Shown in pieces: positions 25,939-58,808 of a stretch of DNA of 64,000 nt. The DNA is from an uncultured Bacilli bacterium. Lineage in GTDB: Bacteria; Bacillota_I; Bacilli_A; RF39; UBA660. Position numbers and translations under genes: made by a program. The stretch covers positions 14,151 to 78,150 of the forward strand of contig CANRNY010000002.1 of the NCBI GenBank assembly GCA_947632085.1, given 5' to 3'. How positions within the stretch are numbered: position 1 is the first letter of the stretch; each line of letters begins with the position of its first letter. Below the pieces are notes generated by a model that was not told where the DNA came from, did not search any database, and was given only the letters and a program-made list of their open reading frames with translations.

Positions 25939-25948
25939 GAGGGATAAG

Positions 25949-27550
25949 ATGAAGAAGATACTTTATTTATTGATTATAAGTTTATGCTTTATGACAACAT
26001 CTTATGCCTTTGACATTGATATTAATAAAATAGATATTAATTCTAAAAGTAATGAATTAATTAATGGCTTAAATAAAACTTATAATATTGAAATTAATGA
26101 TTTTGATAAAAGAATTATTAATGATGATAAAATAAATAATCTAGCTAAAGAATTAGTAAAAGAAACTTTAAGTGATAAAAGTTTTGATGAATTATATGAA
26201 TTATTTAGTAAGAAATATTTATATACTAGTGAAGATAATGGGGCTGATACTTTATCGGGAGCATTATTTATTAAAATGTATTTAGAAATGGTTAAAGAAA
26301 AAGATATTCAAGCTGATTATATTAAAGAAATTAGAACGATTACATTTAAAGAAAATGATGCTTTATCTTTTGTCTTTTTAGAAGATGCAAAAGTAGATGG
26401 TCAAACGGAAGATTTAATTTTAGCTTTTTGGTTAAAAGAAAGTAAAGGCGAATATAAATTATTTTTTCCTTGGTTAACTTATGATAAAGATTTACAAAAT
26501 TATTACAATGAAGTAGCTTTAAAAGAAGAAAAAGGCGAAGTAATTGGGGGAACTTTTAATAAGTTATCATTAGATGATCAAACTGAAGTTAGAACAATAG
26601 ATGAAAATAAGTTAAATGAATTTTATAATAATAATAAACTAAGTAATGTTAGTATAACGGGAATGAATGAAAATGGAATTAATTTAACTGGTAGTGGATT
26701 TGTTATTAGAGAAGGAATAGTTGCTACTACTTGGTCTAATTTTTTAAAATTCTTAAATGATAGTAATTATGTATATGTTACGGATGCTTTAGGTAATACT
26801 TATCAAATTAAAGGTGTAGTAGCTGCAGAAGCTAATTATGATATTGTTTTATTAAAATTAGAAAAAGAAGTATTAACAAAAGTTAAAATAGGTAATAGTA
26901 GTGAACTTAAAACGAATGATGATATTTTAATGATAAATAGTAAATCAAATAAGAATTTTAGTGTTAGTTATGGGACTTTAATTAACGAAGAAAATGGCAG
27001 AATGGAAAATTTACTAAGTTTAAGTGATAGTGATGTTGGTAGTGCTTTATATAATATTAATGGTCAAGTTATAGGATTTGCTGTTGCTGATAGTTTAAAT
27101 GCTGATTTTTCTTATGCTAATAGTACAGATTATCTAAAGAATATTCAAAGTATTTTAACATTACAAAACTTTAATGATATAACAGCGACTTCACTAGAGA
27201 ATTTTAAAATGAGTTATTATCGTAATGTAAATGAAGAAGAAGTAAAATATAATAATACAGGTAAGAAATCTGGTGAATATAAACAAGTTGGTAATGTTTT
27301 AAAAAATATTGATCTACCGTTAATTAAAGCTTCATTTAAAGATAATATTTTAAGTTTAAGATATAAAAACGAAGCAACAGGAATGATAGATGCTATGTAT
27401 TTAGTTTCAAATTATACTAAAGTCTTAGAAGATGACGGCTATGAAAAAACATATGATAGAAATAATAAACAAGTATATATTGGTGATAAATATAAAGTAG
27501 TAATTAAAAATAATTTAGATTATTTAATTATATTAATTATGGAGAAATAG
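25949..27550 (+). CDS. Secreted protein with trypsin/HtrA-like (S1) fold domain, probably non-catalytic
   Basis: Signal-like 'MKKILYLLIISLCFMTTSYA'. 'GSGFVIREGIVATTWSNF', 'YDIVLLKLEK' and 'SDSDVGSALYNINGQVIGF' align to HtrA blocks, but the His position and probably the Ser position are substituted. Confidence 0.5.
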   Translation: MKKILYLLIISLCFMTTSYAFDIDINKIDINSKSNELINGLNKTYNIEINDFDKRIINDDKINNLAKELVKETLSDKSFDELYELFSKKYLYTSEDNGADTLSGALFIKMYLEMVKEKDIQADYIKEIRTITFKENDALSFVFLEDAKVDGQTEDLILAFWLKESKGEYKLFFPWLTYDKDLQNYYNEVALKEEKGEVIGGTFNKLSLDDQTEVRTIDENKLNEFYNNNKLSNVSITGMNENGINLTGSGFVIREGIVATTWSNFLKFLNDSNYVYVTDALGNTYQIKGVVAAEANYDIVLLKLEKEVLTKVKIGNSSELKTNDDILMINSKSNKNFSVSYGTLINEENGRMENLLSLSDSDVGSALYNINGQVIGFAVADSLNADFSYANSTDYLKNIQSILTLQNFNDITATSLENFKMSYYRNVNEEEVKYNNTGKKSGEYKQVGNVLKNIDLPLIKASFKDNILSLRYKNEATGMIDAMYLVSNYTKVLEDDGYEKTYDRNNKQVYIGDKYKVVIKNNLDYLIILIMEK

Positions 27551-27552
27551 CT

Positions 27553-28068
27553 ATGAAGAAAAAATGGTTATTGATATTATTATTTGTTTTAGGAGTAGCT
27601 GCATTAGGAGGACTTTATCATTCTTATAGTATGAAAATAAAAGCTTATGATAATGATAATTTTAAGATAAGTTATGATAGTACATGGAAGATAAAAGATG
27701 AAGATAATGGGTTAACATTAGAACATAAAAAATCACATAGTATAGTAAGAATTCAATGTAAAATATTAGATACTAATTATATCGATACACCTTTAAGTGA
27801 TTTAATTAGTGATATAATTGATAGTATTGAAAAACAAAATAAGGATTATGAATTAATTAGTTCAGCTAATATAACTGATAAATATGAAAGTTATTCTTTT
27901 CTGTATGAAAAGAATATGAAGCAAGCTTTAGTTAATGTTTATAAAAAGGATACGAAATTAATAATAGCTTTTTATGAAGCTGATAGTGAATATTATGATA
28001 TTGTTTTAGATAGTGTTGATACAATGTTAGATTCTTTAGAAATTATTGTGGGAGAAAAAGTAAATTAA
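27553..28068 (+). CDS. Small membrane-anchored hypothetical protein
   Basis: N-terminal 'KKWLLILLFVLGVAALGGLY'. Starts 2 nt after the preceding stop, so it is coupled. Confidence 0.5.
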   Translation: MKKKWLLILLFVLGVAALGGLYHSYSMKIKAYDNDNFKISYDSTWKIKDEDNGLTLEHKKSHSIVRIQCKILDTNYIDTPLSDLISDIIDSIEKQNKDYELISSANITDKYESYSFLYEKNMKQALVNVYKKDTKLIIAFYEADSEYYDIVLDSVDTMLDSLEIIVGEKVN

Positions 28069-28118: not shown

Positions 28119-28157
28119 GAAGTATAAAACTTAAATTAGAAAGGTAGTAAATTTAAG

Positions 28158-28290
28158 TTAGCGCCAGGTCCTTTTATGGATGACGAGGTTAGTAAGATTC
28201 GAAAGATTCGGCGGGTATTACTACGTAAGATTGGAAACGTTAGAATTATTCAAAAAGCAAAATCAAGATTGTAACAAATAATAATTCTCC
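28158..28290 (+). promoter_or_regulatory. glmS ribozyme (GlcN6P-responsive self-cleaving leader)
   Basis: 'AGCGCCAGG' cleavage-site core at 28160, 'GACGAGG' and 'TTCGAAAGATTCGGCGGG' match conserved glmS ribozyme segments. It lies directly upstream of glmS. The 3' boundary is approximate. Confidence 0.85.
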
Positions 28291-28316
28291 ATATTTTTTA
28301 GTATGGAGGAATTTTT

Positions 28317-30101
28317 ATGTGCGGAATAGTAGGTTATGTTGGGAAAGATAGATGTATTCCTAAAATTATAAAGGGCTTAGAAGCTTTAGAATATAGAGGT
28401 TATGATAGTGCAGGGATTGCTTATAAAGTAGGTGACCAGATAAATATTTTAAAAGAAAAAGGAAGAATTAAGTCTTTAAAAGAAATAGTTAATGAAGATA
28501 TTAATTCTTATATAGGAATTGGACATACAAGATGGGCTACACATGGTAAACCTTGTAAAGTTAATAGTCATCCTCATAAAGTAGGTAAAATAACATTAGT
28601 TCATAATGGAATTATAGAAAATTATGAAGAATTGAAACTTTCTTTAAAAGAATATAAATTTAAAAGTGAAACTGATAGTGAAGTTGTAACGGCATTAATT
28701 GATAAACTTTACAAAGAAGAAAAAGATATGTTAAAAGTTTTAGCTAAGTTAAAAGAATATTTAGTTGGGAGTTATGCTTTAGGTATTTTAGTTGATGGAC
28801 AAGATGAGATATACGCGATAAGAAAAGATAGTCCTTTAGTTATAGGGATAAGTGAAGAGGGAAACTTTATTGCTAGTGATGTTCCAGCTATTTTAGAATA
28901 TACAAATATGTATTATTTACTTTTAAATAATGAATATGCAGTGCTTACTTTTGATGATGTAACTATTTATGATCAAGAAGGAAATATTAGTACAAAGTCT
29001 TTAGAAATGTTTGAAGGTAGTAAGGAGTCAGCTATGAAAAATGGCTATGAACATTATATGCTTAAAGAAATATTTGAACAACCTAAAGTAGTAATGGCAA
29101 CAATTAAAGAATATATTAGTAGTTATGATGATTTAAAAGAAAAAATGAATGTTTTAGAAAAGTGTGAAGCAATAGATATAGTAGGTTGTGGTAGTGCTTA
29201 TCATGTAGGTTTAGTAGGTAAGATGTTAATTACTAAATATGCGAAGATACCAGTAAATGTAGAGATTGCTTCAGAGTATCGATATACAGATCATATATAT
29301 AATAAACATCATTTAATTATATTAATAAGTCAATCAGGAGAAACAGCTGATACTTTAGCAGTTTTAAGAAAAGTAAAACAAGAGGGATTAGATACTTTAG
29401 CAATTGTTAATGTAGTTGGTTCTTCAATTGCTCGTGAAGCAGATAAAGTATTATATATAAAAGCTGGACCAGAAATAGCTGTAGCTACTACTAAAGCTTA
29501 TTTATGTCAGATGGTATTATTATCTTTAATTGCTTTATATTTAGGAATTAATAAAAATACTTTGGATAAAAAATTATTGAATGAATATAAACAATTAGAT
29601 AAATTAATTGAACAAGAATTAGTTAGAAAAGATGAATTAGAAGAAATAGCTAATTTAATTTATAAAAATAAAGATATCTTTTATTTAGGAAGAAAAATAG
29701 ATTATGCGTTATGTATGGAAGCTTCATTAAAATTAAAGGAAGTAAGTTATTTACATAGTGAAGCTTATGCAGCAGGAGAATTAAAGCACGGAACAATAAG
29801 TTTGATTGAAAGTAAAACACCAGTGATAAGTATTATTACAGATGATGATATAAGATATAAAACGCTTAGTAATGTAAAGGAAGTTTGTGCTAGAAAGGCT
29901 TTAAGTATAATTATTAGCAATGAAGAAGTAAAAGATAAAACTTTATATAGTAGGTTAATCTTAATACCAAAGGTTCATGAATTATTTAGTGGTATTTTAG
30001 TAATGGTTAATTGTCAATTAATTGCTTATTATGTAGCTAAGTTAAATAATTGTGATATTGATAAACCACGTAATTTAGCTAAAAGTGTGACAGTAGAATA
30101 A
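28317..30101 (+). CDS. glmS: Glutamine--fructose-6-phosphate aminotransferase
   Basis: 'MCGIVGY' Ntn-Cys start, two SIS domains ('SQSGETADTL'), C-terminal 'KPRNLAKSVTVE'. Confidence 0.97.
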   Translation: MCGIVGYVGKDRCIPKIIKGLEALEYRGYDSAGIAYKVGDQINILKEKGRIKSLKEIVNEDINSYIGIGHTRWATHGKPCKVNSHPHKVGKITLVHNGIIENYEELKLSLKEYKFKSETDSEVVTALIDKLYKEEKDMLKVLAKLKEYLVGSYALGILVDGQDEIYAIRKDSPLVIGISEEGNFIASDVPAILEYTNMYYLLLNNEYAVLTFDDVTIYDQEGNISTKSLEMFEGSKESAMKNGYEHYMLKEIFEQPKVVMATIKEYISSYDDLKEKMNVLEKCEAIDIVGCGSAYHVGLVGKMLITKYAKIPVNVEIASEYRYTDHIYNKHHLIILISQSGETADTLAVLRKVKQEGLDTLAIVNVVGSSIAREADKVLYIKAGPEIAVATTKAYLCQMVLLSLIALYLGINKNTLDKKLLNEYKQLDKLIEQELVRKDELEEIANLIYKNKDIFYLGRKIDYALCMEASLKLKEVSYLHSEAYAAGELKHGTISLIESKTPVISIITDDDIRYKTLSNVKEVCARKALSIIISNEEVKDKTLYSRLILIPKVHELFSGILVMVNCQLIAYYVAKLNNCDIDKPRNLAKSVTVE

Positions 30102-30128
30102 AAAGTTACTATCAAGTAACTTTTTTTT
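30101..30128 (+). terminator. glmS terminator
   Basis: AAAAGTTACT / AGTAACTTTT perfect stem, loop ATCA, T-run. Confidence 0.8.
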
Positions 30129-30186
30129 AGAGCTAAAATATGTTATTATTTTAATAGATAAAATAGAAAAAAGTAGGCGATGTATA

Positions 30187-33100
30187 ATGAATCCATTTTT
30201 TCGTAATATATTAAGAATAAATCCTCAAGCATTAAACGGAATACCTGAAAGATTTATTACTGAAGATGATGTTAAAACAGCAGTAAAAAGAGGCTACAAG
30301 GTTGATAGTCAAACACCTATTTACTTATTAAAATATATAGATATAGCTAGATTATATATGACATTACTTGAAAATGGAAAAACAGTAACTGGAGAGGAAA
30401 TAGTTTTATTAATTCAACATGATGAATTAATTGATGAATTAGTTTACTTTATAAATGTCGATGATTATAATGAAGAACAAAAAAAGATTATTTTTGATGT
30501 TCTTAGAAAAAACTTAGATTCATTATTTTATGGAAGGAATGACCTATTATATAGAGAAGAATTAATATATGATTATTTAGAACAAAACCCTTTCTTTTTA
30601 AATAATCCTTATCTTCTTGATAGAATTAAAGATTATGATAGATTCTATGAAATTATTAAAAAGACTTCTAGTTCATATAACTTAAATAATATGAATTTAG
30701 GATTATTTAAAGTTTGGTATAAAAATGATCCTTCGATTTTATTTTCTAGGGATTTACCTTATAAAATAAGAACTAATCCTGAAGTTATTGAAATGTTAAA
30801 AGAATCATATGAAGCACATACTTTAGATTTAATACAATTAAAAAATTCAGAAATGATAAAATTAAAAGAAGTATATACTTATCTTTTAAAAAAAGATATA
30901 GCAAATATTCAGTATTTACCTTATTTTGGATACAATCAAGATTGTTTTGATTTTTTCTTAGATTTGATACTTAATAATTTTGAAGAAAATATTAAATATT
31001 TAGCAGATATTAGTAAAATAGTAACAGGAGATCCTAGTGTAGATAAAAAAAATAGACTTATAAAAGCTATATTAGATAATAATATTGTAGTTAAGGATTG
31101 TTCGTGGTCTTTTTTGGCAGATAATGCTGATATTGTTTATAATTCATTTATTAATGACCCATCATCTATTAATAATTTGAATTCACATTATTTTGGTGAT
31201 AGAGAATTAACTCAAGAAGAAATTGATAATATAGCAAGGATTATTGTAGAACAGAAGATAGTTGTTAATAAATATAATCCTTTTATTAGTCGTTATCCTG
31301 AAATATTAAAGGCGGCTTTAAGTGTTAATCCATATTTAATTGATGATCGGGAAAAGAATATTACTGGTGTTGATTTACGTGAATTAATTAATTATGGTTA
31401 TGAAATAAATATTTCGTCACCATCATTTGTTTTCTATTCTTCTTTTGATAATTTTGATTTTGTTTTAGATGCTATAAATCGAGATTTAAGTTTGTTGAAT
31501 AATCCTTCTTTTAATATTGTTATGCCGACAGAAGAAAAAATATTAAAAGTATATAACGTATTAAAAGCTCATAATTATAAATTAACTTTAACTTCACCTA
31601 AATGCTTATTTAATAATCCTTTATTAGTATTAGATGGATTAGAAGAAAAAAATATTGATTTAAATGATATTGGTAGTAGTGTTATAAATCAAACAAATAA
31701 ATATAGTGAAGTATTAAAACAATATATATTAAATCATTATAGTTTAGAAGAAATAGAAAATATTCTAGGATATACTTATTATTTTGATGAAAAAGATTAT
31801 AACTATGAAGAGAAGATGCAAGTTAATGATATATTGATGGATTTGAAAAAGGATTTTGTTAATTGTGAAATATATAATAGTAAAATTGATTTGAGTTTGG
31901 AAGTCCAAAAACAAATTAGTGATTTATATTTTGCTAATTATGAAGAAAATAAAAAGTTTTATGGGTCAACACCATTGGTAGATAATAATCCATATATTAA
32001 TACTTATGAATGTTTATATCATCATCGTCCAATGCGTAATGTAGATTGCCTAAAAAATACGGAGTTAGCTTCTTTCTTTAAAGAAAATTATCAAAAAGAA
32101 GGAGTTGAAATTACTGGTAATTTAATAAAACTATTTATTAATGATCCAGCATTAGCTGATTTGATAAGACAATATCCAGAGAGAATTGAATCTTGGGCAT
32201 CTCGTTTAAGTTACAATATTAATCAAAATTTTATCACTGAAGTATGTGAGCAATTAAAAAATGGTACTTATGTTGTTTCAAGGAGTATAAATGATGATTT
32301 GGCAAAGGCTATTTTTGATTTTGCATGGGAAAATAATGTACCTAATATTGGATATATTCTTAGAAGAGTAATGGATGAATATTATGGATATGGACGTGAT
32401 TATACAAATTATGTTTATGAAGCTTTAATTAGTGGTAGAGCAAATATGTATGAAATAGGAGAAGATAATTGTTTGAAGTTAAGTGAAGAACAATTACTTG
32501 CGATATTAAAAGCTCAACCAAATAATATTGTTAATATGCGTCGTTCTTTTAATCCTAAAATGAGGGAATTTATTAGTAGACCTGAAATTCAAGAAATATA
32601 TACGAATGCTATTAATAACTTAGAACTATATGATGGAAAAAGAAATTATTCTTTGGATGAATTATTCACTTTAGCTAAAAGTAATCCTAATATCTTTTTA
32701 AGAGAAAAATATTATAAGACTTATACTTTGCTTCAAGGAGAATTATTTAATAGAATTCATAATGTTATTGTTGACGCTTATAAAAATCATAAAATTACGT
32801 TAAATGTTGATTTGGAAAAATGTATAATTGTTACACATAGTACAGCAGATAAAATTGATGACGAATTTATGAATTATTTATTAGAACATGATTTGGTAGA
32901 TTATATATGTTGTTTAAATGAAGGGATGCCTAATGAGTATCTTGATAAATTATATAAAAAGTTTGCTTCATATGACTCTTTAAATAGAAAATTGGATGTT
33001 ATTAATAATATGCCAAAGAATAAAGCTTTTTATTTACCAATATATAAAGAATTATTAAGACAAAGTTTAGGTAAAAAAGAATTAGTTAATTGTACGAAAA

Positions 33101-36100
33101 ATAATATTTTTACACCTTCAGAAGTATATAATATATGGGTAGAAGCTGGACGTCCTTTAAGTTTTTATGATGGTGAAAATGATATTATTACTAATAAACA
33201 AATAATATTAGATGCTTTAAAAATGGATATTAATAATTATCAGTATTTTTTATATAGTCCTGATTTATCTAATCGAGATTTGGCTTTTGAAGAAGAAGTA
33301 TTTAATTTGTATAAAGTACATAGTTATGATATTTCACCTTATTCTTCTAATATCTTTTATAACAATTCATTTATTATGAAGTATATGGGATTAGAAGATA
33401 AAATTGTTATTACAGAAGATAATATGAATTTATACTATGATAAATATCATTGGGATTTGCCTTTAGAAATAATGATAGAATCAGTAAAGAACTATAAATA
33501 TTCTTTAAATAAAATAGTATTTTTTAGAAATTATTCAGAGTTATTTAATTATTTAAAAAGTACTAATTTTGTTCTAGATGAAAAATATGATGCTTCAGTA
33601 GCAGCAAACTATGAGTTTGTGACTATTTCAGCTGAAAATAATTTAAAACAAACTATAGAAGTTGTTGGTAAATATAAAGTAGAAGCAGATAGTAAAATAG
33701 TAAAATATTTAATAGAGAAAGCTATAAATAATAATTATTTAGTTAATAGTAAAACACCAAAGGTATTCTTAAAAAATAAAGATTTGTTATATCATTCAAT
33801 TAAAACAGATCCAAAATTAATCGTTTATTTTGATAAAAACATTGAATTTGATGAACAAGAAAAACAAGAAATTAGAGAATTACTAATAAAAAATAAAATA
33901 TGTTATTATTATGGAATATTTAAATTCTTAGAAGATGATTATGAGTATGTCAAATTTAGTGTTATGAATAATCCATCTTCAATAGAAGTAATTAATGAAG
34001 CTTGCTTTACGACAGTAGAGAAAAATGAATTAATGAAAATAATTAAAGATAAAATAAGAGATAGTAGTTATAAAATAAATTATAATATGCCAACTTGGTT
34101 ATTTTATGATTATGAATTATTGGCGATGGCTCGTAAAGAGTTACCATTAATAGGAAAAGATATTCCAGGATTTGATTATTTATTAGAAGATTATAAATTA
34201 TTATACGAAAAAGGTATTACAATCGATAATAATCCATATACAATATTAAATAATATTATAAATAATATAGAGTTAGTTGATGTTTTACAAATAAATCCTA
34301 ATATAGTTTATCCTGAAGAATTATTTAATCAATTAGTTGATAAGTTAATAGCAAGTCATTATGAAATAAATGAAAAAACACCAAATATTCTTTTCAATAG
34401 TGGAGAATTTATTATTTATGCTTTAGAAAATAATATGAAGATAGATGATAAATATATTGAAAGATTTTTGAATATAGAAAATTTATATAAATATAAAAAG
34501 TTTGATTTAGCTAAAAAATATTGTCAAATGGGTTATGGAATTAAATATAAAAATATGTTTGATAAATTTGGTTTAGATGAAACTTTAAAATTAGCAATAA
34601 AATATGGTTATTTATTAAATACATTAAATTTAAACGAGAATTATGATATAGATAAATTAGATGAATATTTCTTAAAGACAGCTGGATATGGTGATTTAGT
34701 TGATGTCTTAATTAGAATTAATTATCCATTAAGTGATGAAGAAATTAAAGAAGGCAAAATAAATCTTATTGGAAGACATTTTGTTTTATCTGAGAATGAC
34801 ATGTTGTTTAATTATTTAATTCCGAAGGACCCTAATAAAATTATGTTATATACTGGACGTAATAATAAATTATATATATTGGCAATTAAATGTGGTTTTG
34901 AACTAACTTTAGAAAAATATATAAAATGTGATAATTTTAGAACTAATGATTATTATACTTCATTAATTTTAGATACTGATTGTAATGCAATTAAATATTA
35001 TCGCGGTTCTAATAGTGAATTATATAAAAAAGCAATTGCTAAAGGTTATAAGATAAATGAACAAGATTTTATAGATTTTCCATATCTTTGTGATACATAC
35101 TTATTAGAATATGCAATTAATACTGATGATGTAAGTAAATATATTATGTATTATAAAGGTCATGATGAGGAGTTATTTAAAAAAGCAATTGCAAATGGTT
35201 ATGTACCAACGATTGATATTTTAAATAAGAAAGATAATTTCTGTGCTAGTTCTGCTATTATTCATCGAGTGATGCAAGATGATATAAAAGCAATTAAATA
35301 TTATAAAGGTAGTGCAGAGTATTTTACTGATTTATTTGATATAGAAGATAAAAATGGTAATAAAATTGTTCCTGATAGAGAAATGATGAAGGATTTAGCT
35401 TTTATCTATGGTAATGATGAATTAATGAAAAAAGCTATTTTATATGATTGTAATAATATTGTATTTTATCAAGGGAATGAGGAAGAATTATTTAACTTAG
35501 CAATAAATGGTGGTTATATACCTAAGAAAGAAGATTTTGAACTTACTGATAATTTAAATGATAAAAATATAATATTTAAAAAGATTTTAGAATTAGGTCT
35601 TATTGATTTATTATTATATTATACAGGTAATGATGAAGAAATTATAAAGGGAATATATAGAGATTTGTTAAGTGATCAATATGATTTAGTTATTAGGAAT
35701 AATGATGATTTAACTAATTATATTGCAGTATGGCAATCATTTAATAGTAGTACTAATCATGAAAGATTAATTACTTATATGAATCCAAAAAATATAAAAG
35801 CATTTGAAAAAATGCCAATAGATTATTATCTAGTTTTAAAATATGGTATTGGTAATTCAAAGATGGATTTTCTTATTCAAATAATTAAAGATGGTCAAAT
35901 AGATAATTTTGCTAATATTTATTCTTATTTAATAAAAAATTATTTAGAACTTAATAATAATGCTTTTGGAGTTGATTTATTTTTAAAGATAGCTCGTTTA
36001 TATGTAACATATCCTAATTTATTAGGTAATATTCTTGATAGGAAATTAAATGATATTGAAGTAGCTAATTTAATTAAACTTATTAATAGTGAGGTAAAAA

Positions 36101-38205
36101 TAAGTGAAGTTAATAGCTTAGAAGATTTGGCAAAATTAGATGAAACTTTAATTGCGACTATTAAATATAATTTAGATTTTTGTAAAGATCCAAAAGAAAT
36201 TAAAAATATGATACTACAATATGTTTTTAATATTGATTATGATGAATTTATGCATATTTTAACTAATTATATTAATTTTGATACTTTGGACAAAATTATT
36301 AGTAAAGCAGAAAAATTAAAAAATCAAGAAGAATTAATGTATGAAGCTTCAATATTAAAGATATTATTAAAAATGTTAGAAGAGACAGTTAATGCGACGA
36401 ATGATATAGAATCATTAAAAGCATTATTAAGAAATTATTTAAATAATCAAGAATTAGTAAATAAAGTAAGGCCTTTATATTATGATTTAAAAGAAAGAAT
36501 AAGAAATATATATGAGTTAGATGCTAATGCTACTTTAACAGATTTAAGTGATTATACCCCTAATGAAAATGGTGTTATTGATTTACAAAACTCAGAATAT
36601 ACTATTTATGCACATGTTATGGGTGGGGATAATTTTGCTGATTATGTTAAATATCGTTTTAATGGTAAAGTAACAATATGTGTTTCACCAATAAGTAATT
36701 TAGGTAAGAAATTATATTCTAATTCAGGAGTTATTTTAGGATTTGTAAATATTCCTCGTGGAGGATTTATTGGTTCATCTAATCGTAATATGGGTAGTAA
36801 TGGTTATATTAATAATAATGATTATCAAGTTCATAATGATCACTTTTATCATTTAGAAATTAAAGATAGTAGTTCTTTAACACCTAAAGAACATCCAGAA
36901 ACTTTATTATATCGTGATGGTTTATTACCTGGTTGTATTATTATTAGAGGTGATATACCTAGTCAAGAAGAAAAGGCAGCACAGCAAGCCTTTAGAGATT
37001 TAGGATTAGAAATTCCTTTTGTTCATACGCAAGCGATTGGTAATGTAGCTGAATTAAAAGGCAAAGATATGACAATTGTTGATCCACAAGAAGATGTTGA
37101 TAAACATATTTATGTAGAACAAAATATTGAACTTGGAGAATATGAAGCTAAACTAGATAAAATTAAGAAAGTACGAGAAAAAGTATTAGAATTAAAAGAA
37201 CATGTTGAAGGTTTAGGAATAAAACAAGAAGAAATATATGATTTAATACCAATGAAAATTGGTGGTTCGCATGATATGTTTAAATGTCATATTAAAGGTA
37301 AAGATGGAATATTCTATTTAAAACCTGGTTATCGTAAAGGAAGAGGAGATATTGATCCATATCGTTCTTATGCGATGGAAGCTGGTTATCGTATTCAATC
37401 AATTGTTAATCCAGAAGGAGCAGTATATGTTGATACAGTAATGGTTTCTTCAGAAAGTCTTGGATATAGTAGTACACAAGAAGATATATTGTGTTCAGTA
37501 ATTGAAGTTAAACAAGATACGACGAGTTATGATGGTTGGGCGACTAGTAGAGTTGAGTATTCTGAATTATCAGAAAAAGAAATGTCATCATTTATGCAAG
37601 AATTTATTAGTGATTATTTGTTATTTAGTTATGATACTAAGCCAGAGAATTTCCTAAAGGATAAAAATGGAAATACATTTGGTATTGATAAAGAACAAGC
37701 ACTAAAATTTATTCTTCATCCATTATTTGCCCAAAGAGATAATGATAACAATTTAACATTTAATACTTCTTTTGCCGATTCTACTTCTTCAAAAGCCGAT
37801 TTTAATGGTTGTGGTATAATTTATATTAAGATTTTTGATGCTGTTAAAGAAGGAAAACAAAAAATAACAGAAGAAAATGTTAATAAGGCGATGGCAGCGA
37901 TAAATCGAGTTGAAGCTATGTCTGATGAAGAATATAAACAAATTTTTAAAAACTATGTTGATGATTTTGCTAAAAGCTCAGTTGTTTCTAGTATAGTTAA
38001 TAGTTATAAAAATGCAGGATATTCAGATAAAGATGCCATAGCAGCGGTTAAAAATGAATTATATGAATCACTTTTAGCAAGAAAAAATAATTTACGTACA
38101 GAGTTTACATTATATATTAATAATGTTTTATCAACTTATTATTCTAAGATAGGGGAGGAAGTTCCAGAATGGGTAACGAATTTGAGTCAAGAAAAGAAGA
38201 TTTAA
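30187..38205 (+). CDS. Giant (2672 aa) non-secreted repeat protein with C-terminal atypical protein-kinase-like domain
   Basis: Uninterrupted 8-kb ORF with no signal peptide or TM. About 2100 aa of degenerate helical repeats (DUF4116-like pattern 'h..A+..nP..h..h'), an unassigned globular segment, then 'GGSHDMFKCHIKGKDGIFYLKPG ... SYDTKPENFL ... GIDKEQ', a kinase-like core. Confidence 0.85.
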   Translation: MNPFFRNILRINPQALNGIPERFITEDDVKTAVKRGYKVDSQTPIYLLKYIDIARLYMTLLENGKTVTGEEIVLLIQHDELIDELVYFINVDDYNEEQKKIIFDVLRKNLDSLFYGRNDLLYREELIYDYLEQNPFFLNNPYLLDRIKDYDRFYEIIKKTSSSYNLNNMNLGLFKVWYKNDPSILFSRDLPYKIRTNPEVIEMLKESYEAHTLDLIQLKNSEMIKLKEVYTYLLKKDIANIQYLPYFGYNQDCFDFFLDLILNNFEENIKYLADISKIVTGDPSVDKKNRLIKAILDNNIVVKDCSWSFLADNADIVYNSFINDPSSINNLNSHYFGDRELTQEEIDNIARIIVEQKIVVNKYNPFISRYPEILKAALSVNPYLIDDREKNITGVDLRELINYGYEINISSPSFVFYSSFDNFDFVLDAINRDLSLLNNPSFNIVMPTEEKILKVYNVLKAHNYKLTLTSPKCLFNNPLLVLDGLEEKNIDLNDIGSSVINQTNKYSEVLKQYILNHYSLEEIENILGYTYYFDEKDYNYEEKMQVNDILMDLKKDFVNCEIYNSKIDLSLEVQKQISDLYFANYEENKKFYGSTPLVDNNPYINTYECLYHHRPMRNVDCLKNTELASFFKENYQKEGVEITGNLIKLFINDPALADLIRQYPERIESWASRLSYNINQNFITEVCEQLKNGTYVVSRSINDDLAKAIFDFAWENNVPNIGYILRRVMDEYYGYGRDYTNYVYEALISGRANMYEIGEDNCLKLSEEQLLAILKAQPNNIVNMRRSFNPKMREFISRPEIQEIYTNAINNLELYDGKRNYSLDELFTLAKSNPNIFLREKYYKTYTLLQGELFNRIHNVIVDAYKNHKITLNVDLEKCIIVTHSTADKIDDEFMNYLLEHDLVDYICCLNEGMPNEYLDKLYKKFASYDSLNRKLDVINNMPKNKAFYLPIYKELLRQSLGKKELVNCTKNNIFTPSEVYNIWVEAGRPLSFYDGENDIITNKQIILDALKMDINNYQYFLYSPDLSNRDLAFEEEVFNLYKVHSYDISPYSSNIFYNNSFIMKYMGLEDKIVITEDNMNLYYDKYHWDLPLEIMIESVKNYKYSLNKIVFFRNYSELFNYLKSTNFVLDEKYDASVAANYEFVTISAENNLKQTIEVVGKYKVEADSKIVKYLIEKAINNNYLVNSKTPKVFLKNKDLLYHSIKTDPKLIVYFDKNIEFDEQEKQEIRELLIKNKICYYYGIFKFLEDDYEYVKFSVMNNPSSIEVINEACFTTVEKNELMKIIKDKIRDSSYKINYNMPTWLFYDYELLAMARKELPLIGKDIPGFDYLLEDYKLLYEKGITIDNNPYTILNNIINNIELVDVLQINPNIVYPEELFNQLVDKLIASHYEINEKTPNILFNSGEFIIYALENNMKIDDKYIERFLNIENLYKYKKFDLAKKYCQMGYGIKYKNMFDKFGLDETLKLAIKYGYLLNTLNLNENYDIDKLDEYFLKTAGYGDLVDVLIRINYPLSDEEIKEGKINLIGRHFVLSENDMLFNYLIPKDPNKIMLYTGRNNKLYILAIKCGFELTLEKYIKCDNFRTNDYYTSLILDTDCNAIKYYRGSNSELYKKAIAKGYKINEQDFIDFPYLCDTYLLEYAINTDDVSKYIMYYKGHDEELFKKAIANGYVPTIDILNKKDNFCASSAIIHRVMQDDIKAIKYYKGSAEYFTDLFDIEDKNGNKIVPDREMMKDLAFIYGNDELMKKAILYDCNNIVFYQGNEEELFNLAINGGYIPKKEDFELTDNLNDKNIIFKKILELGLIDLLLYYTGNDEEIIKGIYRDLLSDQYDLVIRNNDDLTNYIAVWQSFNSSTNHERLITYMNPKNIKAFEKMPIDYYLVLKYGIGNSKMDFLIQIIKDGQIDNFANIYSYLIKNYLELNNNAFGVDLFLKIARLYVTYPNLLGNILDRKLNDIEVANLIKLINSEVKISEVNSLEDLAKLDETLIATIKYNLDFCKDPKEIKNMILQYVFNIDYDEFMHILTNYINFDTLDKIISKAEKLKNQEELMYEASILKILLKMLEETVNATNDIESLKALLRNYLNNQELVNKVRPLYYDLKERIRNIYELDANATLTDLSDYTPNENGVIDLQNSEYTIYAHVMGGDNFADYVKYRFNGKVTICVSPISNLGKKLYSNSGVILGFVNIPRGGFIGSSNRNMGSNGYINNNDYQVHNDHFYHLEIKDSSSLTPKEHPETLLYRDGLLPGCIIIRGDIPSQEEKAAQQAFRDLGLEIPFVHTQAIGNVAELKGKDMTIVDPQEDVDKHIYVEQNIELGEYEAKLDKIKKVREKVLELKEHVEGLGIKQEEIYDLIPMKIGGSHDMFKCHIKGKDGIFYLKPGYRKGRGDIDPYRSYAMEAGYRIQSIVNPEGAVYVDTVMVSSESLGYSSTQEDILCSVIEVKQDTTSYDGWATSRVEYSELSEKEMSSFMQEFISDYLLFSYDTKPENFLKDKNGNTFGIDKEQALKFILHPLFAQRDNDNNLTFNTSFADSTSSKADFNGCGIIYIKIFDAVKEGKQKITEENVNKAMAAINRVEAMSDEEYKQIFKNYVDDFAKSSVVSSIVNSYKNAGYSDKDAIAAVKNELYESLLARKNNLRTEFTLYINNVLSTYYSKIGEEVPEWVTNLSQEKKI
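34804..35665 (+). repeat. Six tandem ~49-aa protein repeats inside the giant ORF
   Basis: Recurring '(I/L)xYYxGxxEELFxxAIxxGY' units: IMLYTGRNNKLYILAIKCGF, IKYYRGSNSELYKKAIAKGY, IMYYKGHDEELFKKAIANGY, IKYYKGSAEYF, IVFYQGNEEELFNLAINGGY, LLYYTGNDEEIIKGIY. DNA-level similarity is visible (35021-35056 versus 35171-35206). Confidence 0.8.
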
Positions 38206-38366
38206 ATAAATTAAGTGAATTAATTAATAATGTTGATCCAGAAAATAATTATTATAAAGAATCATTAAATGAAATAAAAGATTTATTAGTAAAAATGGAT
38301 CAGCCAAAAAAAGCTTTAGAAGAAGAGAAAGAAGCTAAAGATAAAGAGAAAAAGAAGGCAATTTGA
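38169..38366 (+). CDS. Small K/E-rich protein (65 aa) overlapping the end of the giant gene
   Basis: GGGGAGGAAG RBS 8 nt before ATG 38169. 37-nt overlap with the giant ORF in another frame. Followed by a terminator. Confidence 0.45.
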   Translation: MGNEFESRKEDLNKLSELINNVDPENNYYKESLNEIKDLLVKMDQPKKALEEEKEAKDKEKKKAI

Positions 38367-38382
38367 CATTGTCTTCTTTTTT
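38351..38382 (+). terminator. Rho-independent terminator
   Basis: AAAGAAGGCAAT / ATTGTCTTCTTT stem (one G-U pair), loop TTGAC, T-run. Confidence 0.7.
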
Positions 38383-38411
38383 CCTTTATAATATGGCTAG
38401 TGGTGATAACT

Positions 38412-39002
38412 ATGAAAATTGATACTGTAGAACTAAAAAGTATTGCAGTAAGAACAAGTCAATATCCAGAAGATCAGAAAAAAGAGTTTTTATTAGTAGG
38501 TAGAAGTAATGTAGGTAAAAGTTCATTTATTAACTCAATTATCGGACGTAAGAATTTTGCACATACTAGTGCAACACCTGGTAAAACGAAAACTTTAAAT
38601 TTTTACTTAATAAATGATGAATTTTATTTAGTAGATGTGCCAGGATATGGGTATGCAGCAGTTTCACAAGATAATCAAAAGAAATTTGGTTTAATGATCG
38701 AAGAATACTTAATTAATCGTAAAAATTTAAAAAGAGTGTTCTTACTAGTTGATTTTAGACATAAACCAACAGAAGATGACTTATTAATGTATAATTTTAT
38801 GAAGTATTATAATTTAGATGTAACAATTGTCGCAACTAAGTATGATAAAGTAGGTCAAAAAGATCGTGTTAAAACGGAAAATGTTTTAAGAAGTTCATTT
38901 GAATTGAAAGGGAATGATAATATTGTATTATATTCTTCAGTTACGAAAAAAGGTCGTGAAGAAATATATTCAATTATTAATGAATGTCTTGGTACTAAAT
39001 AG
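38412..39002 (+). CDS. engB: Ribosome biogenesis GTPase EngB/YsxC
   Basis: 'GRSNVGKSSFINS', 'DVPGYGYA', 'ATKYDK'. ATG 38412 preferred over track GTG 38400. Confidence 0.9.
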   Translation: MKIDTVELKSIAVRTSQYPEDQKKEFLLVGRSNVGKSSFINSIIGRKNFAHTSATPGKTKTLNFYLINDEFYLVDVPGYGYAAVSQDNQKKFGLMIEEYLINRKNLKRVFLLVDFRHKPTEDDLLMYNFMKYYNLDVTIVATKYDKVGQKDRVKTENVLRSSFELKGNDNIVLYSSVTKKGREEIYSIINECLGTK

Positions 39003-39099: not shown

Positions 39100-40425
39100 A
39101 TGAAAAAGACTGTTTGTTTAATTGGTAGACCTAATGTAGGTAAAAGTACAATCTTTAATCGTTTAATTAAAGAAAACAAAGCTATTATTTTGGATACACC
39201 TGGAGTAACTAGAGATCGTATTTATGGTGATGTTACGTATGATGAAAAAACATTTTTATTAGTTGATACAGGTGGTATAGATTTAGGCGAAGGGGACTTT
39301 AATAAAGATATTAGATTACAAGCTGAGATAGCTATAGAAGAATCTGATGTAATAGTATTTGTTGTTGATGGTCGAGAAGATTTAACAAGTAATGATTTAT
39401 TTATTCGTGATATGTTAATGAAAACTAATAAAAAAGTTATTGTAGCTTTAAATAAATTAGATAATTTTAAATTACAAGAAGAAAGAATATATTACTATTA
39501 TGAATTAGGTTTTCAATATGTAATACCAATATCTGCTTCTCATAATTTAGGTTTTGGCGAATTATTAGATGAAATAACTAAGGATTTTAAAGAAAATAGT
39601 GATGAACCAGAAAATATCTTAAAATTTTGTATTATTGGCAGACCTAATGTTGGCAAAAGTAGTTTGGTTAATGCCATATTAAATGAAGAAAGAGCTATTG
39701 TTTCTGATGTTGCAGGTACAACTAGAGATTCTGTTGATACAAGATTTAAATATAATAATGAAGATTATATCGTCATAGATACAGCAGGAATGCGTAAACA
39801 AGGAAAGATATATGAATCAGTTGAAAAATATAGTTTACTTAGAAGTTTAAAAGCAATTGATCGTGCTGATGTTTGTGTATTAGTAATAGATGCCCAAGAA
39901 GGAATTATTGAACATGATAAACATATAGCTAGTTATGCGATTGAAGCTGGTAAAGGATTAGTTTTAGTTGTTAATAAATGGGATACGATTGAAAATAAAG
40001 ATCAAGCGATAAAAGAATGGAAAGTTCTTTTAAAAAATGAATTTCAATTTATGACATATGCTAAAGTTGTTTTCTTATCAGCATTAACGAAAAAAAGATT
40101 ACATACTTTAATGCCAGAAATATTAAGTGCTTATGAAAATAATCATCGTGAAGTTAAAACATCACTTTTAAATAATGTAATAAATGATGCAACTAAATTA
40201 CATGAAGCACCTGGTTATAAAGGTCGTAAATTAAAAATTTATTTCAGTAGTCAAACAGGTATATGTCCTCCTAAATTTACTTTTAGATGTAATGATAAAG
40301 GATTAGTTCATTTTAGTTATGAAAGATATTTAGAAAACACAATTAGAAATAATTTTGATTTTACGGGAACACCAATTGTTTTACAATTTAAAAATAGAGG
40401 TAGTAAAGATGAAGATGATGAATAA
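39100..40425 (+). CDS. der: Ribosome biogenesis GTPase Der/EngA
   Basis: Two GTPase domains ('GRPNVGKSTIFN', 'GRPNVGKSSLVN', 'DTGG', 'DTAG', 'NKLD', 'NKWD') plus a C-terminal KH-like domain. Confidence 0.95.
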   Translation: MKKTVCLIGRPNVGKSTIFNRLIKENKAIILDTPGVTRDRIYGDVTYDEKTFLLVDTGGIDLGEGDFNKDIRLQAEIAIEESDVIVFVVDGREDLTSNDLFIRDMLMKTNKKVIVALNKLDNFKLQEERIYYYYELGFQYVIPISASHNLGFGELLDEITKDFKENSDEPENILKFCIIGRPNVGKSSLVNAILNEERAIVSDVAGTTRDSVDTRFKYNNEDYIVIDTAGMRKQGKIYESVEKYSLLRSLKAIDRADVCVLVIDAQEGIIEHDKHIASYAIEAGKGLVLVVNKWDTIENKDQAIKEWKVLLKNEFQFMTYAKVVFLSALTKKRLHTLMPEILSAYENNHREVKTSLLNNVINDATKLHEAPGYKGRKLKIYFSSQTGICPPKFTFRCNDKGLVHFSYERYLENTIRNNFDFTGTPIVLQFKNRGSKDEDDE

Positions 40426-40470: not shown

Positions 40471-42345
40471 ATGGCAAATACAGTATTAGGATATAAATTT
40501 GAAATGTGTAATCCTAAAATATTAACTATTCCTTATATAAAGGAACATATAGATGAACTAGATATAAAAGAGATAACTTTAGATGGTTGTACTTTAATTA
40601 ATGAAAATAAATTTATATATTCAGATTATGAACATCCGATAGTTTTAGTAGATGCGATATTATCAACTAAAACTCTTAGTATAGATTCAAAATATTATAT
40701 GGAACATAAAGAAGAAATAGATGAATTAATTGCCTTTATTTGTCAGCATATAAAAGGGGACTTTTTATCTCTGGCTGATAAACCATTAGTTAATGATAAT
40801 GTTTATGAAGCGATAGGAAGTAATCCTAATATAAAGAAATTAAGAGTTGGAAATATGAATGATCCAGTTTCATTGACATTAAATGGATATAATTCGTTAA
40901 AAAAAGGGAATATAGAAGAAGTAAGAAGTTATGGCATATGTGAAGAACTTAAGGAAAATTTTGATCCTATTATTCTATATAATAGAAGAGAATTAGCTGG
41001 TCGTTATACTTATAATGCCTTACAAAGTAGTGATTCATTTTTGTTTAGTAAATCTTTATCTGAAGATGAATTATATTATTTAAAGTTTATTAATAAAAAA
41101 GCTAGTATTTCAATTCAATCATATGATTATGCTAATTATTTTAAAATGGTTAAAAGATTAAAAGAAGTTAACTATGAAGGACCTATTAGTTTGTATGTTA
41201 ATAATAAAAATGAACTTAATAATTATATATTTACTCATTTAGAGGAATTAACTGGTTTAGATAATATTTTTATTAAATCACAAACTTATATTGGTTTAGA
41301 TTGTGATATTTTAACATATATAAAAAATGAAAAAAGACTTATTGATATGGTAATGCCGGCGATTAATTATAGTCCTTTTGAAAAATATTTATATGCTTAT
41401 AATATTGTTAAACACTTTAAGAAATATAAAGAAAGTGAAGATAAATCTAAGGCCCGAAATTTGTATCAGTTATTAGATAGTGATTATATGGTATGTGTAG
41501 GTTTTGCAAGATTACTGGGAGATTTATTAGAAAAATTAGGAATTCCTAGTATAGATTATTCAGTATCGGTTGATGTAGGATTAGATGATGTTGATTCAAA
41601 GGCTTTAGTAGTACCAGATAAAGTAGTTTCAAGAGTTAATGGTCAAGAACATGAAGTCTTACTAAAAAAAGAAAGTCACGCTCGTTTGATGGTTAATTTA
41701 GTTGATAGTAAGTATGGAATAGATGGTTATTTTATAACTGATCCAACGTGGGATAATAATATGGAACTTGATACTTATAATTATGCGTTAATGACGCAAG
41801 ATGAATATATAGGTATTTATCGTTATGATAGTTTAAATTATTTTAGTGTTGATGAGTTATTTTTTGCTCATAGCTTAGAAGAGTTTTATTTAAAAATTAA
41901 TTTCTTATTAGATAAGAATAAAAGACAAAGTGAAAAAGATATTATAAGAAATTTATTAAATAAATTTAAAAAGATAGATAGTGAATTTTATGAAGAATTA
42001 ATTAGTAAATATGAGGGATTAGATAAGTATAGTTTTACATTTACAAAAGAATTAATTCAAGATATTCTTTTAGATATGGGTGAACATATTTTATTAAAAA
42101 CAAATAAGATGGTTAGTGGTAAAACATTTAAAGAAGGTATAAGGAATTACTATGAAAAAGTAGATGGTTTAAATGGAGAAGAATTAGAACAAAAAGTTAA
42201 TGAAGTAATGAGGGAGAATGAAAGGCTACAAGCAATTAATTTCCCAACAAGATATAAAATAGAGCGTGATAATGAAAAAATGGTTATTTTAAATGAAACT
42301 AATAAATTTACTTTAGATAGTGAAGAAGAGGGCTTAAAAATGTAA
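40471..42345 (+). CDS. Cytoplasmic transglutaminase-like (papain-fold) domain protein
   Basis: Core triad pattern: 'YMVCVGFARLLGDLLEKLGIPS' (Cys342), 'ESHARLMVNL' (His403), 'YFITDPTWD' (Asp424). No TM. The N-terminal 330 aa are unassigned. Confidence 0.65.
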   Translation: MANTVLGYKFEMCNPKILTIPYIKEHIDELDIKEITLDGCTLINENKFIYSDYEHPIVLVDAILSTKTLSIDSKYYMEHKEEIDELIAFICQHIKGDFLSLADKPLVNDNVYEAIGSNPNIKKLRVGNMNDPVSLTLNGYNSLKKGNIEEVRSYGICEELKENFDPIILYNRRELAGRYTYNALQSSDSFLFSKSLSEDELYYLKFINKKASISIQSYDYANYFKMVKRLKEVNYEGPISLYVNNKNELNNYIFTHLEELTGLDNIFIKSQTYIGLDCDILTYIKNEKRLIDMVMPAINYSPFEKYLYAYNIVKHFKKYKESEDKSKARNLYQLLDSDYMVCVGFARLLGDLLEKLGIPSIDYSVSVDVGLDDVDSKALVVPDKVVSRVNGQEHEVLLKKESHARLMVNLVDSKYGIDGYFITDPTWDNNMELDTYNYALMTQDEYIGIYRYDSLNYFSVDELFFAHSLEEFYLKINFLLDKNKRQSEKDIIRNLLNKFKKIDSEFYEELISKYEGLDKYSFTFTKELIQDILLDMGEHILLKTNKMVSGKTFKEGIRNYYEKVDGLNGEELEQKVNEVMRENERLQAINFPTRYKIERDNEKMVILNETNKFTLDSEEEGLKM

Positions 42346-42356
42346 GTCCTTTTTTC

Positions 42357-42385
42357 TTGACAAAAAAATGAAATATTTATATAGT
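42357..42385 (+). promoter_or_regulatory. Candidate sigma-A promoter
   Basis: TTGACA (42357-42362), 17-nt spacer, TATAGT (42380-42385), directly upstream of the 42396 ORF. Confidence 0.45.
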
Positions 42386-42395
42386 AAATTTTACT

Positions 42396-43730: not shown

Positions 43731-43731
43731 G

Positions 43732-50757: not shown

Positions 50758-50780
50758 ACAAGAGATTGTCTATTTATTTT
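50753..50780 (+). terminator. thrS terminator
   Basis: AATAGACAA / TTGTCTATT perfect stem, loop GAGA, then TATTTT. Confidence 0.7.
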
Positions 50781-50846
50781 GGGATTAATTGACACTATAA
50801 TTTATTTTTTGTATATTTTTATTGATAGAATATGGTGATAGTTATT

Positions 50847-52061: not shown

Positions 52062-52069
52062 AATAGTAG

Positions 52070-52098
52070 AGGAATTCTAAAATAAAAGAATTCCTTTT
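52070..52098 (+). terminator. Rho-independent terminator
   Basis: AGGAATTCT / AGAATTCCT perfect 9-bp stem, 8-nt loop, T-run. Confidence 0.7.
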
Positions 52099-52157
52099 AT
52101 ATTGTAATTCTCTATTATTTAAGTTATAATTACTAGAGAATAGGGAGTGTGGCAAGT

Positions 52158-56825: not shown

Positions 56826-56858
56826 GGGGTTAACGAGTGTTAACCTCTTGTTTATTCG

Positions 56859-56887
56859 TTGACTTTAAATTTTTTTAAGTGTATTAT
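56859..56887 (+). promoter_or_regulatory. Candidate promoter of the yukD-esx operon
   Basis: TTGACT (56859-56864), 17-nt spacer, TATTAT (56882-56887). Preceded by hairpin GGGGTTAAC/GTTAACCTC (56826-56848). Confidence 0.5.
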
Positions 56888-56986
56888 GAATATATAAGAG
56901 TATATAATCGATGGTTGTGGGGAATTGGTCAGAAATGGTAAGCTATCATATATTCTTAAGTCTACTGTTTAATAGGAGGTTTTATT

Positions 56987-57244: not shown

Positions 57245-57259
57245 GGAGGTGTAAGATTA

Positions 57260-57568: not shown

Positions 57569-57589
57569 TTGATGAAAGGGTGATTATAG

Positions 57590-57907: not shown

Positions 57908-57912
57908 TTTAT

Positions 57913-57977: not shown

Positions 57978-58000
57978 TTGGAGTATAAGGAGGTTATGAT

Positions 58001-58297: not shown

Positions 58298-58308
58298 GGA
58301 GGTAAATT

Positions 58309-58773: not shown

Positions 58774-58808
58774 CATGACAATTAATATTGAATAAGAGGT
58801 GAAATATT

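Follow-up and report, generated by a model that had tools for sequence, protein, structure and literature searches.

What kind of protein is encoded by a single gene of about 8 kb in a gut Firmicute, and what is the role of the tiny gene that overlaps its end? The question arises in a 64,000-nucleotide stretch of contig CANRNY010000002.1 from an uncultured Bacilli bacterium (the window, by which we mean that whole stretch), where one uninterrupted open reading frame (ORF) runs on the forward strand from an ATG at 30187 to 38205 and encodes 2672 residues. A sequence-only reading had described the product of this intact ORF as a giant intracellular scaffold, with some 2100 residues of repeats, an unassigned segment and one enzymatic head, a kinase-like core at the C-terminus. 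Combining profile searches, structure prediction and comparison of related loci, our work upholds the intact ORF and, at the level of both motifs and predicted fold, the kinase-like core. The single head does not stand: the protein ends in two separable conserved modules, here called domains A and B, each of which is found alone in other proteins, and the giant gene is coupled to a small partner gene. The components are of known kinds, namely a presumed solenoid repeat protein, an effector kinase of the protein-kinase-like (PKL) fold and a small downstream partner, whereas what is new, as far as profile and fold searches indicate, is that both C-terminal domain families are unannotated and that domain A lacks recognisable relatives. 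We tentatively favour a reading in which the two genes form a bicistronic accessory module, the giant protein being a putative conflict or toxin-like effector and the small protein its translationally coupled neutraliser or regulator.

An intact gene of a rare family

Among 5.8 billion clusters, a word-index search found no more than five, that of the window protein and those of four full-length relatives of 2680-2776 residues (55, 37, 36 and 24% identity), and these orthologue clusters hold several members from different assemblies. An exhaustive hidden Markov model (HMM) search together with a genome scan yielded further giant relatives of ~2330-2890 residues, and the exhaustive search puts the clusters with the giant architecture at about 20. 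The giant relatives come from metagenome-assembled genomes (MAGs) of uncultured Bacillales and Clostridia; the giant ORFs in related loci span 2701-2877 residues, and intact full-length genes are present in at least 9 independent assemblies. The comparison of orthologues and their lengths that the sequence-only reading had proposed has in this way produced full-length relatives of ~2.3-2.9 thousand residues in independent assemblies. The whole giant protein matches nothing in Pfam, NCBIfam or PADLOC, and the literature that we searched holds no description of such an architecture.

Selection on the gene was gauged from one orthologue pair, that of loci L004 and L006, whose proteins are 78% identical. 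For the gene as a whole, the ratio of nonsynonymous to synonymous substitution rates (dN/dS) is 0.27; no 300-codon block reaches 0.45, the minimum of 0.13-0.14 falling at residues 1803-2402 and the repeat regions lying at 0.29-0.43. The giant gene is under purifying selection; the sequence-only reading had judged selection likely. Column identity among five orthologues is low in residues 1-1825, at 0.18-0.48 overall and 0.18-0.45 over most of residues 1-1800, and rises to 0.55-0.71 over residues 2000-2300 and 0.48-0.62 over residues 2350-2550. That we are looking at an assembly artefact, a fusion of neighbouring genes or a decaying pseudogene is hardly credible, and for practical purposes such an origin is excluded: the same end-to-end architecture recurs in many independent assemblies from different projects, the DNA of one relative (P0003) is identical in three samples, and no block of the gene has escaped selection. 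No finding speaks for such an origin, which deserved exclusion since few long frames remain free of stop codons by chance in AT-rich sequence.

A kinase-like module at the C-terminus

An exhaustive search with a profile of residues 2120-2672 matched 481 representatives among 1.84 billion cluster representatives, and the matches split cleanly into A (residues 2129-2289) and B (residues 2344-2672). The architectures comprise A-B, A alone, A with a metallophosphatase, A-B with a metallophosphatase, B alone and B-B; both modules are mobile and turn up apart from each other as well. Even if their function should turn out to be mundane, they define two domain families that lack annotation and together comprise about 480 representative clusters.

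Across 99 B domains, conservation centres on K2379, Q2404, E2472, D2476, N/S2481, D2483, N2488, D2501-K-E, Y2546, Y2583 and R2632, with the catalytic set retained in 85% (K2379), 89% (D2483), 88% (N2488) and 89% (D2501) of them. The window protein carries these residues in the motifs YLK2379PG, SYD2483TKPEN2488F and GID2501KEQ, which retain the Lys for ATP binding, both the Asp and the Asn of catalysis and the Asp that binds metal; the combination that defines PKL kinases (an ATP-anchoring Lys in strand 3, a catalytic Asp and a metal-binding Asn and Asp) is found in it complete. A Foldseek search with the kinase model, itself of low confidence, retrieved ERK2, CDK4, PknB, PAN3 and PI3K-gamma (E 2.5e-4 to 2e-3, probability up to 0.99). 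Because the Lys/Asp/Asn/Asp motifs are complete and the fold matches are to kinases, we assign domain B, on motifs and predicted fold, to the PKL superfamily, as a member with a loop of the HipA/PI3-4K type that fits no curated family.

The window protein matches none of the curated kinase profiles (Pkinase, HipA_C, PI3_PI4_kinase, APH and others), and sub-threshold Pfam matches in family members go to PI3_PI4_kinase (3 of 21 members, best E=0.006) and HipA_C (2 of 21, best E=0.021). Against PDB sequences the domain B profile finds nothing significant, HipA_C and HipT standing at E~0.4, and a joint A and B profile likewise finds nothing significant there. The likeness to HipA and the PI3/PI4 kinases resides in the loop N/S-x-D-x-[K/H]-x-x-N, which in an hhalign comparison with E. 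coli HipA aligns with residues 290-317 around D309 and N314, an alignment of 28 columns only that is confined to the catalytic loop (P=0.043). By analogy with HipA, domain B may be a toxin-type Ser/Thr kinase accompanied by a small partner gene. There are differences: no match reaches a curated threshold, the window protein is six times longer than HipA, and its partner ORF lies downstream, has no helix-turn-helix by Pfam and is unrelated to HipB.

A further clue comes from the fate of the active site in different lineages. Among A-B proteins, all 29 with no metallophosphatase keep the kinase residues K, D, N and D intact, whereas all 11 with a C-terminal calcineurin-like metallophosphatase (P0005, P0022, P0023, P0025, P0026, P0031, P0036 and P0038-P0041) have lost them, the catalytic Asp, Asn and Asp included, which leaves a pseudokinase. 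The window protein falls in the active-looking group. This pattern suggests, at the level of sequence motifs, an alternation between a kinase on the one hand and a pseudokinase with a phosphatase on the other, and the two kinds of lineage constitute a natural experiment whose comparison could show what the system acts on.

Relatives of domain B in phages and injection systems

Where else domain B occurs bears directly on what it may do. Searching phage genomes with B by tblastn matched nine mycobacteriophages. In Mycobacterium phage Aikoy, gp15 (1340 residues) has B at residues 201-455 and a C-terminal Pfam ADPrib_exo_Tox domain; hhalign relates B to this protein with 99.1% probability (E 1.3e-18, 229 columns). 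In prophiFVLQ01-1, gp56 is encoded between the portal and scaffold genes and has a VG15 N-terminus and an ADP-ribosyltransferase (ART) C-terminus. On a metagenomic phage contig the gene of the B protein P0101 comes immediately behind Phage_Mu_F, in a head module that also has Acb2/Tad1-like and ART genes. Five metagenomic representatives are outright MuF-B fusions, and the gene of the B-B protein P0046 closes an extracellular contractile injection system (eCIS) locus, in the cargo position. Sites at which B is near or fused to MuF or lies in an eCIS include L021 4709-8091, L020 10001-13105 and the proteins P0160, P0146, P0120, P0092 and P0147. Such contexts are typical of effectors of inter-genomic conflict (PMC5512222, PMC5576092). 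The paper on MuF toxins mentions no kinase, and the kinase clade described among polyvalent proteins lacks the C-terminal subdomain (PMC5512222), so its identity with B is not established.

One protein combining A with a metallophosphatase is encoded near SMODS and DUF6602 genes. In P0033 (L012 302-4625, 1363 residues) the A-B pair precedes a region with weak similarity to SMODS/oligonucleotide cyclases (E=7e-4 in Pfam, E=0.003 in PADLOC).

Could the giant protein then be a domesticated or relic polyvalent protein of a phage or mobile element, now unlinked from a virion or conjugation apparatus? Its B domain is homologous to the mycobacteriophage polyvalent-type proteins and the MuF fusions, and the alignment with Aikoy gp15 takes in the Lys, the loop N-x-D-x-[KH]-x-x-N-F, the motif G-I-D-K-E/G-Q and the helical tail; the giant protein has many domains and is of great size; and the GC content of its gene is slightly under that of the flanks (0.21-0.23 versus 0.25-0.27). 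We nevertheless consider this origin very unlikely. The window protein is not in a phage and lacks a MuF, VG15 or portal domain as well as a canonical ART (Pfam finds no MuF, portal or relaxase domain in it), while its ~2100 residues of repeat and helical region and its domain A are missing from the phage proteins. There are no phage or conjugation genes in the 64-kb window or at the other loci, an IMG/VR pattern scan and a plasmid search for relatives gave no matches, and selection on the gene has been maintained.

Domain A and the region before it

The segment of about 160 residues that had been noted as unassigned matches no known family; it proves to be an autonomous domain, more strongly conserved than any other part of the protein. 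E2238 is invariant in the domain A family, R2243 is kept in 99%, H2143 in 96% and S2167 in 90%, and the domain carries an S-S-x-x-N-x-G-S-N loop. In a first model of A and B together, built on a multiple sequence alignment (MSA) of five sequences, domain A reached only 20-60 in predicted local distance difference test (pLDDT) score; an AlphaFold model of domain A from a 37-sequence alignment gives a compact alpha/beta domain at pLDDT 89.4 and a predicted TM-score of 0.87. Fold searches with this model in PDB and BFVD gave no significant match. The best structural match in PDB is yeast Tpt1 (7yw4; E=0.34, probability 0.38, TM-score 0.35-0.45, 153 columns) and the best in BFVD an iridovirus ORF (E=0.22), neither of them significant.

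The resemblance to Tpt1/KptA raises the possibility of ART-like activity, which we treat as a weak lead. Besides the top structural match, the His, Ser and Glu of domain A lie at or beside successive predicted strands, an arrangement that may parallel that of ARTs of the H-Y/S-E type. Set against this, domain A has no significant structural, Pfam or hhalign match to the ART family: Pfam and PDB-sequence profiles yielded nothing except a single ART match in one member (E=0.087), and hhalign comparisons with E. coli KptA and with the phage protein bearing ADPrib_exo_Tox were negative. A reading of the conserved residues as a Ser-His-Asp protease was dropped, the spacing apparently fitting no known triad family. 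In one Bacilli lineage a NADAR gene (E=5e-23) stands directly after the small partner ORF (L004 18300-18791, L006 8473-8961); this may point to a link with NAD/ADP-ribose chemistry in domain A, or its place could be a coincidence.

Preceding domain A is a conserved non-repetitive region, residues 1830-2120, which is found directly before A in ~25 representative proteins, short ones included (P0040, P0043), and is absent from the ~1290-residue proteins that combine A with a metallophosphatase. Between A and B lies a helical linker, for which a low-confidence model predicts a long helix at residues 199-222 of the modelled sub-sequence.

A small gene at the end of the giant gene

We compared seven loci: those of the window, L002, L004, L006, L005, L007 and L009. 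In all seven, spanning both clades, a small ORF of 52-119 residues overlaps or abuts the end of the giant gene. The window copy contains the motif L-I-N-x-V-D-P-x-N-x-x-Y, and across loci the partners share L-I-N-x-[VA]-D-(P)-x-x-x-x-Y and a basic tail. The window copy is preceded by a strong Shine-Dalgarno (SD) sequence inside the giant gene, and SD-like purine-rich stretches lie at a similar distance upstream of the small ORF in L002, L004 and L006. Immunity genes are usually found as small ORFs immediately behind a toxin gene (PMC5576092). Outside these loci, a 64-residue ORF downstream of the A-B gene in L012 is similar by eye and was rejected as a partner homologue, the similarity not being significant; the ORFs that follow the B-domain genes of phages show no relationship to the partner.

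The two genes are also set apart from their surroundings. Hairpins with U-runs stand on both sides, as had been seen in the sequence-only reading: one at 30100-30125 after glmS (-9.3 kcal/mol, z -3.5, with none of 200 shuffles equally stable), which the consensus terminator scan missed because its stem is AT-rich, and one at 38344-38386 (-16.3 kcal/mol, z -4.6). Since these hairpins bracket the giant gene and the small ORF, the pair looks like one bicistronic unit. In the Clostridia-clade loci a third conserved gene of 148-152 residues without a Pfam family follows the small ORF (L005 10947-11405, L007 12580-13026, L009 12632-13090); it is absent from the window. Beyond the small ORF, and beyond this third gene in the Clostridia clade, the flanking genes differ in every locus and position is not conserved: in the window the housekeeping genes glmS, engB and der lie nearby, and at other loci ftsW, ftsA, RNase J and rsmF.

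These neighbours are what might recommend a housekeeping role, in which the solenoid would organise an envelope, division or ribosome-assembly complex around a signalling kinase and the small ORF would encode a subunit or substrate. The absence of a secretion signal or anchor, the purifying selection over the whole length and the retention of length and architecture across Bacilli and Clostridia MAGs agree with such a scaffold as well. We judge it unlikely all the same. The family is extremely sparse, no synteny is kept beyond the small ORF, A and B are shuffled among unrelated architectures with B in phage MuF and eCIS contexts, and a dN/dS of 0.27 seems to us higher than would be expected of a core gene. 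The giant scaffold of the sequence-only reading, if meant in the housekeeping sense, finds no support: the family is very rare, its genomic position varies, and the relatives of B are effector domains of phage MuF or polyvalent-type proteins and sit in an eCIS locus.

A proposed effector and neutraliser

A toxin-like or defensive module is suggested by the tiny partner gene that always follows and by a kinase of a type known also from phages and injection systems; its accessory nature is suggested by the rarity of the family, the differing flanks in every locus and the unit bounded by terminators. In the reading that we favour, with the reserve already stated, A and B would act as a toxin-like or effector enzyme pair, in which B may phosphorylate a protein target and A may perform a second catalytic step with its set of His, Ser, Glu and Arg residues. 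The repeat region would serve as a sensing or docking scaffold, and the small basic partner would be the cognate inhibitor or regulator, similar to an immunity protein or antitoxin, that silences the effector in the producer. We lean, no less tentatively, towards intracellular deployment of the abortive-infection or defence type, because evolution has been faster in the sensor-like N-terminus than at the effector end and because the protein has no trafficking domain.

Several results weigh against this effector-and-neutraliser reading. Neither the giant protein nor the small ORF nor three relatives match anything in PADLOC-DB v2, and among the neighbouring genes PADLOC recognises only FtsK-like ATPases. 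The 64-kb window offers no defence-island or prophage context, the flanks being glmS, engB and der. The kinase model is of low confidence (pLDDT 56.6 on the 5-sequence MSA, TM-scores of 0.2-0.4), and domain A lacks a recognisable catalytic fold. The partner profiles of the two clades align at P=0.0027 in a profile-profile comparison, a modest significance. Finally, the C-terminal domains are the most conserved and are not swapped among orthologues, unlike those of classical polymorphic toxins.

The comparison with polymorphic toxins and their immunity proteins cuts both ways. As in those pairs, a large protein carries C-terminal enzymatic modules that recur in other delivery contexts, and a small conserved ORF stands next to it. 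In contrast to them, no N-terminal trafficking domain is recognised in the window protein, and its C-terminus is conserved (0.55-0.71) relative to the N-terminal region (0.18-0.45) and not variable.

A bolder version of the effector reading, which we consider doubtful, is that of a hitherto unrecognised type of giant single-chain immune or conflict system, in which a solenoid of ~2000 residues would sense an invader or a perturbation of the cell and free a two-enzyme effector from its 65-residue inhibitor. The effectors would be an active HipA/PI3-4K-like kinase and domain A, a predicted fold with no solved or viral-predicted counterpart. That sister lineages seem to have swapped kinase chemistry for a pseudokinase with a metallophosphatase would then imply that phosphorylation state is the signal being manipulated. 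If the effector reading is true, three things so far unconnected become linked, namely a kinase family carried as cargo by phage heads and present in an eCIS locus, domain A, and giant chromosomal proteins of gut Firmicutes. It offers well-defined targets for testing: K2379, D2483 and D2501 in domain B, H2143, E2238 and R2243 in domain A, and the 65-residue candidate inhibitor.

Secretion as an alternative

An intracellular place of action is compatible with the features of the protein itself. No transmembrane-like segment (maximum Kyte-Doolittle 19-residue mean 1.32), no signal-peptide-like N-terminus and no LPxTG motif could be found in it, in agreement with the sequence-only reading, and Pfam matches up to E<=10 include no LXG, WXG100, MuF, RHS, VgrG or other trafficking domain. 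The region 48994-62465 of the window has the appearance of a type VII secretion system (T7SS) locus of the T7SSb kind. Its 1558-residue ORF at 52149-56825, 14 kb beyond the giant gene, is an EssC/YukB homologue (E 1e-123 to B. subtilis YukB); beside it lie a 409-residue ORF, ORFs of ~100 residues at 57260-57568 and 57590-57907 that have the size of WXG100 proteins, and ORFs of 154 and 847 residues, EssC alone being verified. The 102- and 409-residue ORFs by EssC have no PDB sequence match. T7SS substrates do not carry Sec signals, so with such a locus 14 kb away a cytoplasmic location of the giant protein is unproven.

One may therefore ask whether the protein is an antibacterial toxin, with the immunity protein encoded downstream of it, that is exported through this T7SS or another Sec-independent route, its repeats forming a delivery stalk. 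The EssC/YukB homologue with its adjoining WXG100-sized ORFs, the toxin-like C-terminus followed by a small ORF, and the occurrence of relatives of B as cargo of other delivery systems, MuF and eCIS, all speak for it. We hold export to be quite unlikely, given that Pfam finds no trafficking domain even at E<=10, that no T7SS genes are called within +/-10 kb of the orthologues, that the C-terminus is not polymorphic among orthologues, and that housekeeping and unrelated genes stand between the giant gene and the T7SS locus in the window.

The repeat region

About 2100 residues of the protein had been described as repeats resembling those of DUF4116. Internal similarity is indeed significant in sliding-window HMM comparisons, and the repeats are statistically real; they are, however, far fewer than that description implied. 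Iterated HMMs resolve two unit types with ~15-20 detectable units in total, versus ~0 in shuffled sequences, confined to three blocks (residues ~290-490, ~1175-1420 and 1540-1824). Type-1 units, in residues 291-490 and 1175-1417, number five strong copies and up to 12 at a relaxed score: the type-1 HMM matches residues 291-325 and 456-490 (E 1e-11 and 2e-9), more weakly 349-382 and 399-430, and residues 1175-1209, 1229-1263 and 1383-1417 at E 2e-12 to 7e-9. The type-2 HMM matches its units at E 1e-15 to 1e-7 and nothing in shuffles; copy number differs between relatives, with ~12 in P0059. Treating both types as one HMM family was rejected, as each HMM converges on its own block. Residues 1-1825 are presumed, from their sequence, to be alpha-solenoid-like.

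The resemblance to DUF4116 (PF13475), which is predicted to form an alpha-solenoid (PMC8078820), is weak. The window units are of ~50 residues, against ~49 in DUF4116, and have a similar hydrophobic and Asn/Asp-Pro pattern, but all matches are under the gathering score: in the window protein Pfam DUF4116 reaches only residues 1175-1218 (E=2.7, 8.1 bits versus a 24.9-bit gathering cutoff), and three of the five orthologues have sub-threshold matches (best E=2.3e-4). The best-defined repeat type, that of residues 1540-1824, has no match to Pfam DUF4116, even in the relative with ~12 copies. Membership of DUF4116 is weakly supported at the sequence level, and the picture of an extended DUF4116 array that ends in just one head needs to be corrected.

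Boundaries and neighbours of the unit

The features of the unit are collected in Table 1. The gene upstream, which its SIS and GATase domains and a glmS ribozyme before it at 28149-28296 mark as glmS, and the small overlapping ORF downstream are both as first described. The good ribosome-binding site once credited to the giant gene is not: only a weak TAGG/AGG core lies 9 nt 5' of its ATG, and the strong SD in this region belongs to the small ORF.

Table 1. Features of the giant gene, its product and the small partner gene in the window
Feature	Position	Strand	Residues	Description
Terminator-like hairpin and U-run after glmS	30100..30129	+		Upstream boundary of the unit
Giant ORF	30187..38205	+	2672 in total	ATG start; weak SD, AGG at 30175-30177
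N-terminal region	30187..35661	+	1-1825	Low conservation, repeat-containing
Type-1 repeat block	31057..31656	+	291-490	Motifs such as '..GY.h...TP..h....hh..ah..NP'
Type-1 repeat block	33709..34437	+	1175-1417	Contains the sole DUF4116-like stretch, residues 1175-1218
Type-2 repeat block	34804..35658	+	1540-1824	5-7 units of ~50 residues, pattern 'I.YY.G...ELF..AI..GY'
Conserved non-repetitive region	35674..36546	+	1830-2120	Column identity 0.34-0.56, dN/dS 0.13
Domain A	36571..37053	+	2129-2289	Predicted alpha/beta, most conserved part of the protein
Helical linker A-B	37054..37215	+	2290-2343	Conservation 0.31
Domain B	37216..38202	+	2344-2672	Predicted protein-kinase-like fold with helical C-terminal extension
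Strong SD of the small ORF, GGGGAGGA	38152..38159	+		Within the 3'-terminal part of the giant gene, 9 nt 5' of the small ORF
Small partner ORF	38169..38366	+	65 in total	37-nt overlap with the giant gene, Lys-rich tail
Terminator hairpin and U-run closing the two-gene unit	38344..38392	+		Overlaps the promoter of the next gene

The promoter that overlaps the closing terminator is a perfect sigma-70-type consensus, TTGACA-18-TATAAT at 38363-38392, and sits just 5' of an engB/ysxC-like GTPase gene (38400-39002), which is followed by der (39100-40425). Between der and the T7SS region, 40471-46026 holds three consecutive ORFs of 624, 444 and 767 residues that PADLOC does not recognise; Pfam assigns the first two to no family and finds in the third nothing but an AAA_5/AAA ATPase domain. 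On the other side of the giant gene, a 753-residue FtsK/SpoIIIE-like ATPase at 21019-23280 is matched by PADLOC to SspH, mad8 and HerA, which most likely reflects the shared FtsK-HerA ATPase fold and not a defence gene. The region 24232-28068, 5' of the glmS ribozyme, contains a 568-residue ORF without a Pfam family, a 533-residue ORF with a trypsin-like peptidase domain and a 171-residue ORF with a hydrophobic N-terminus.

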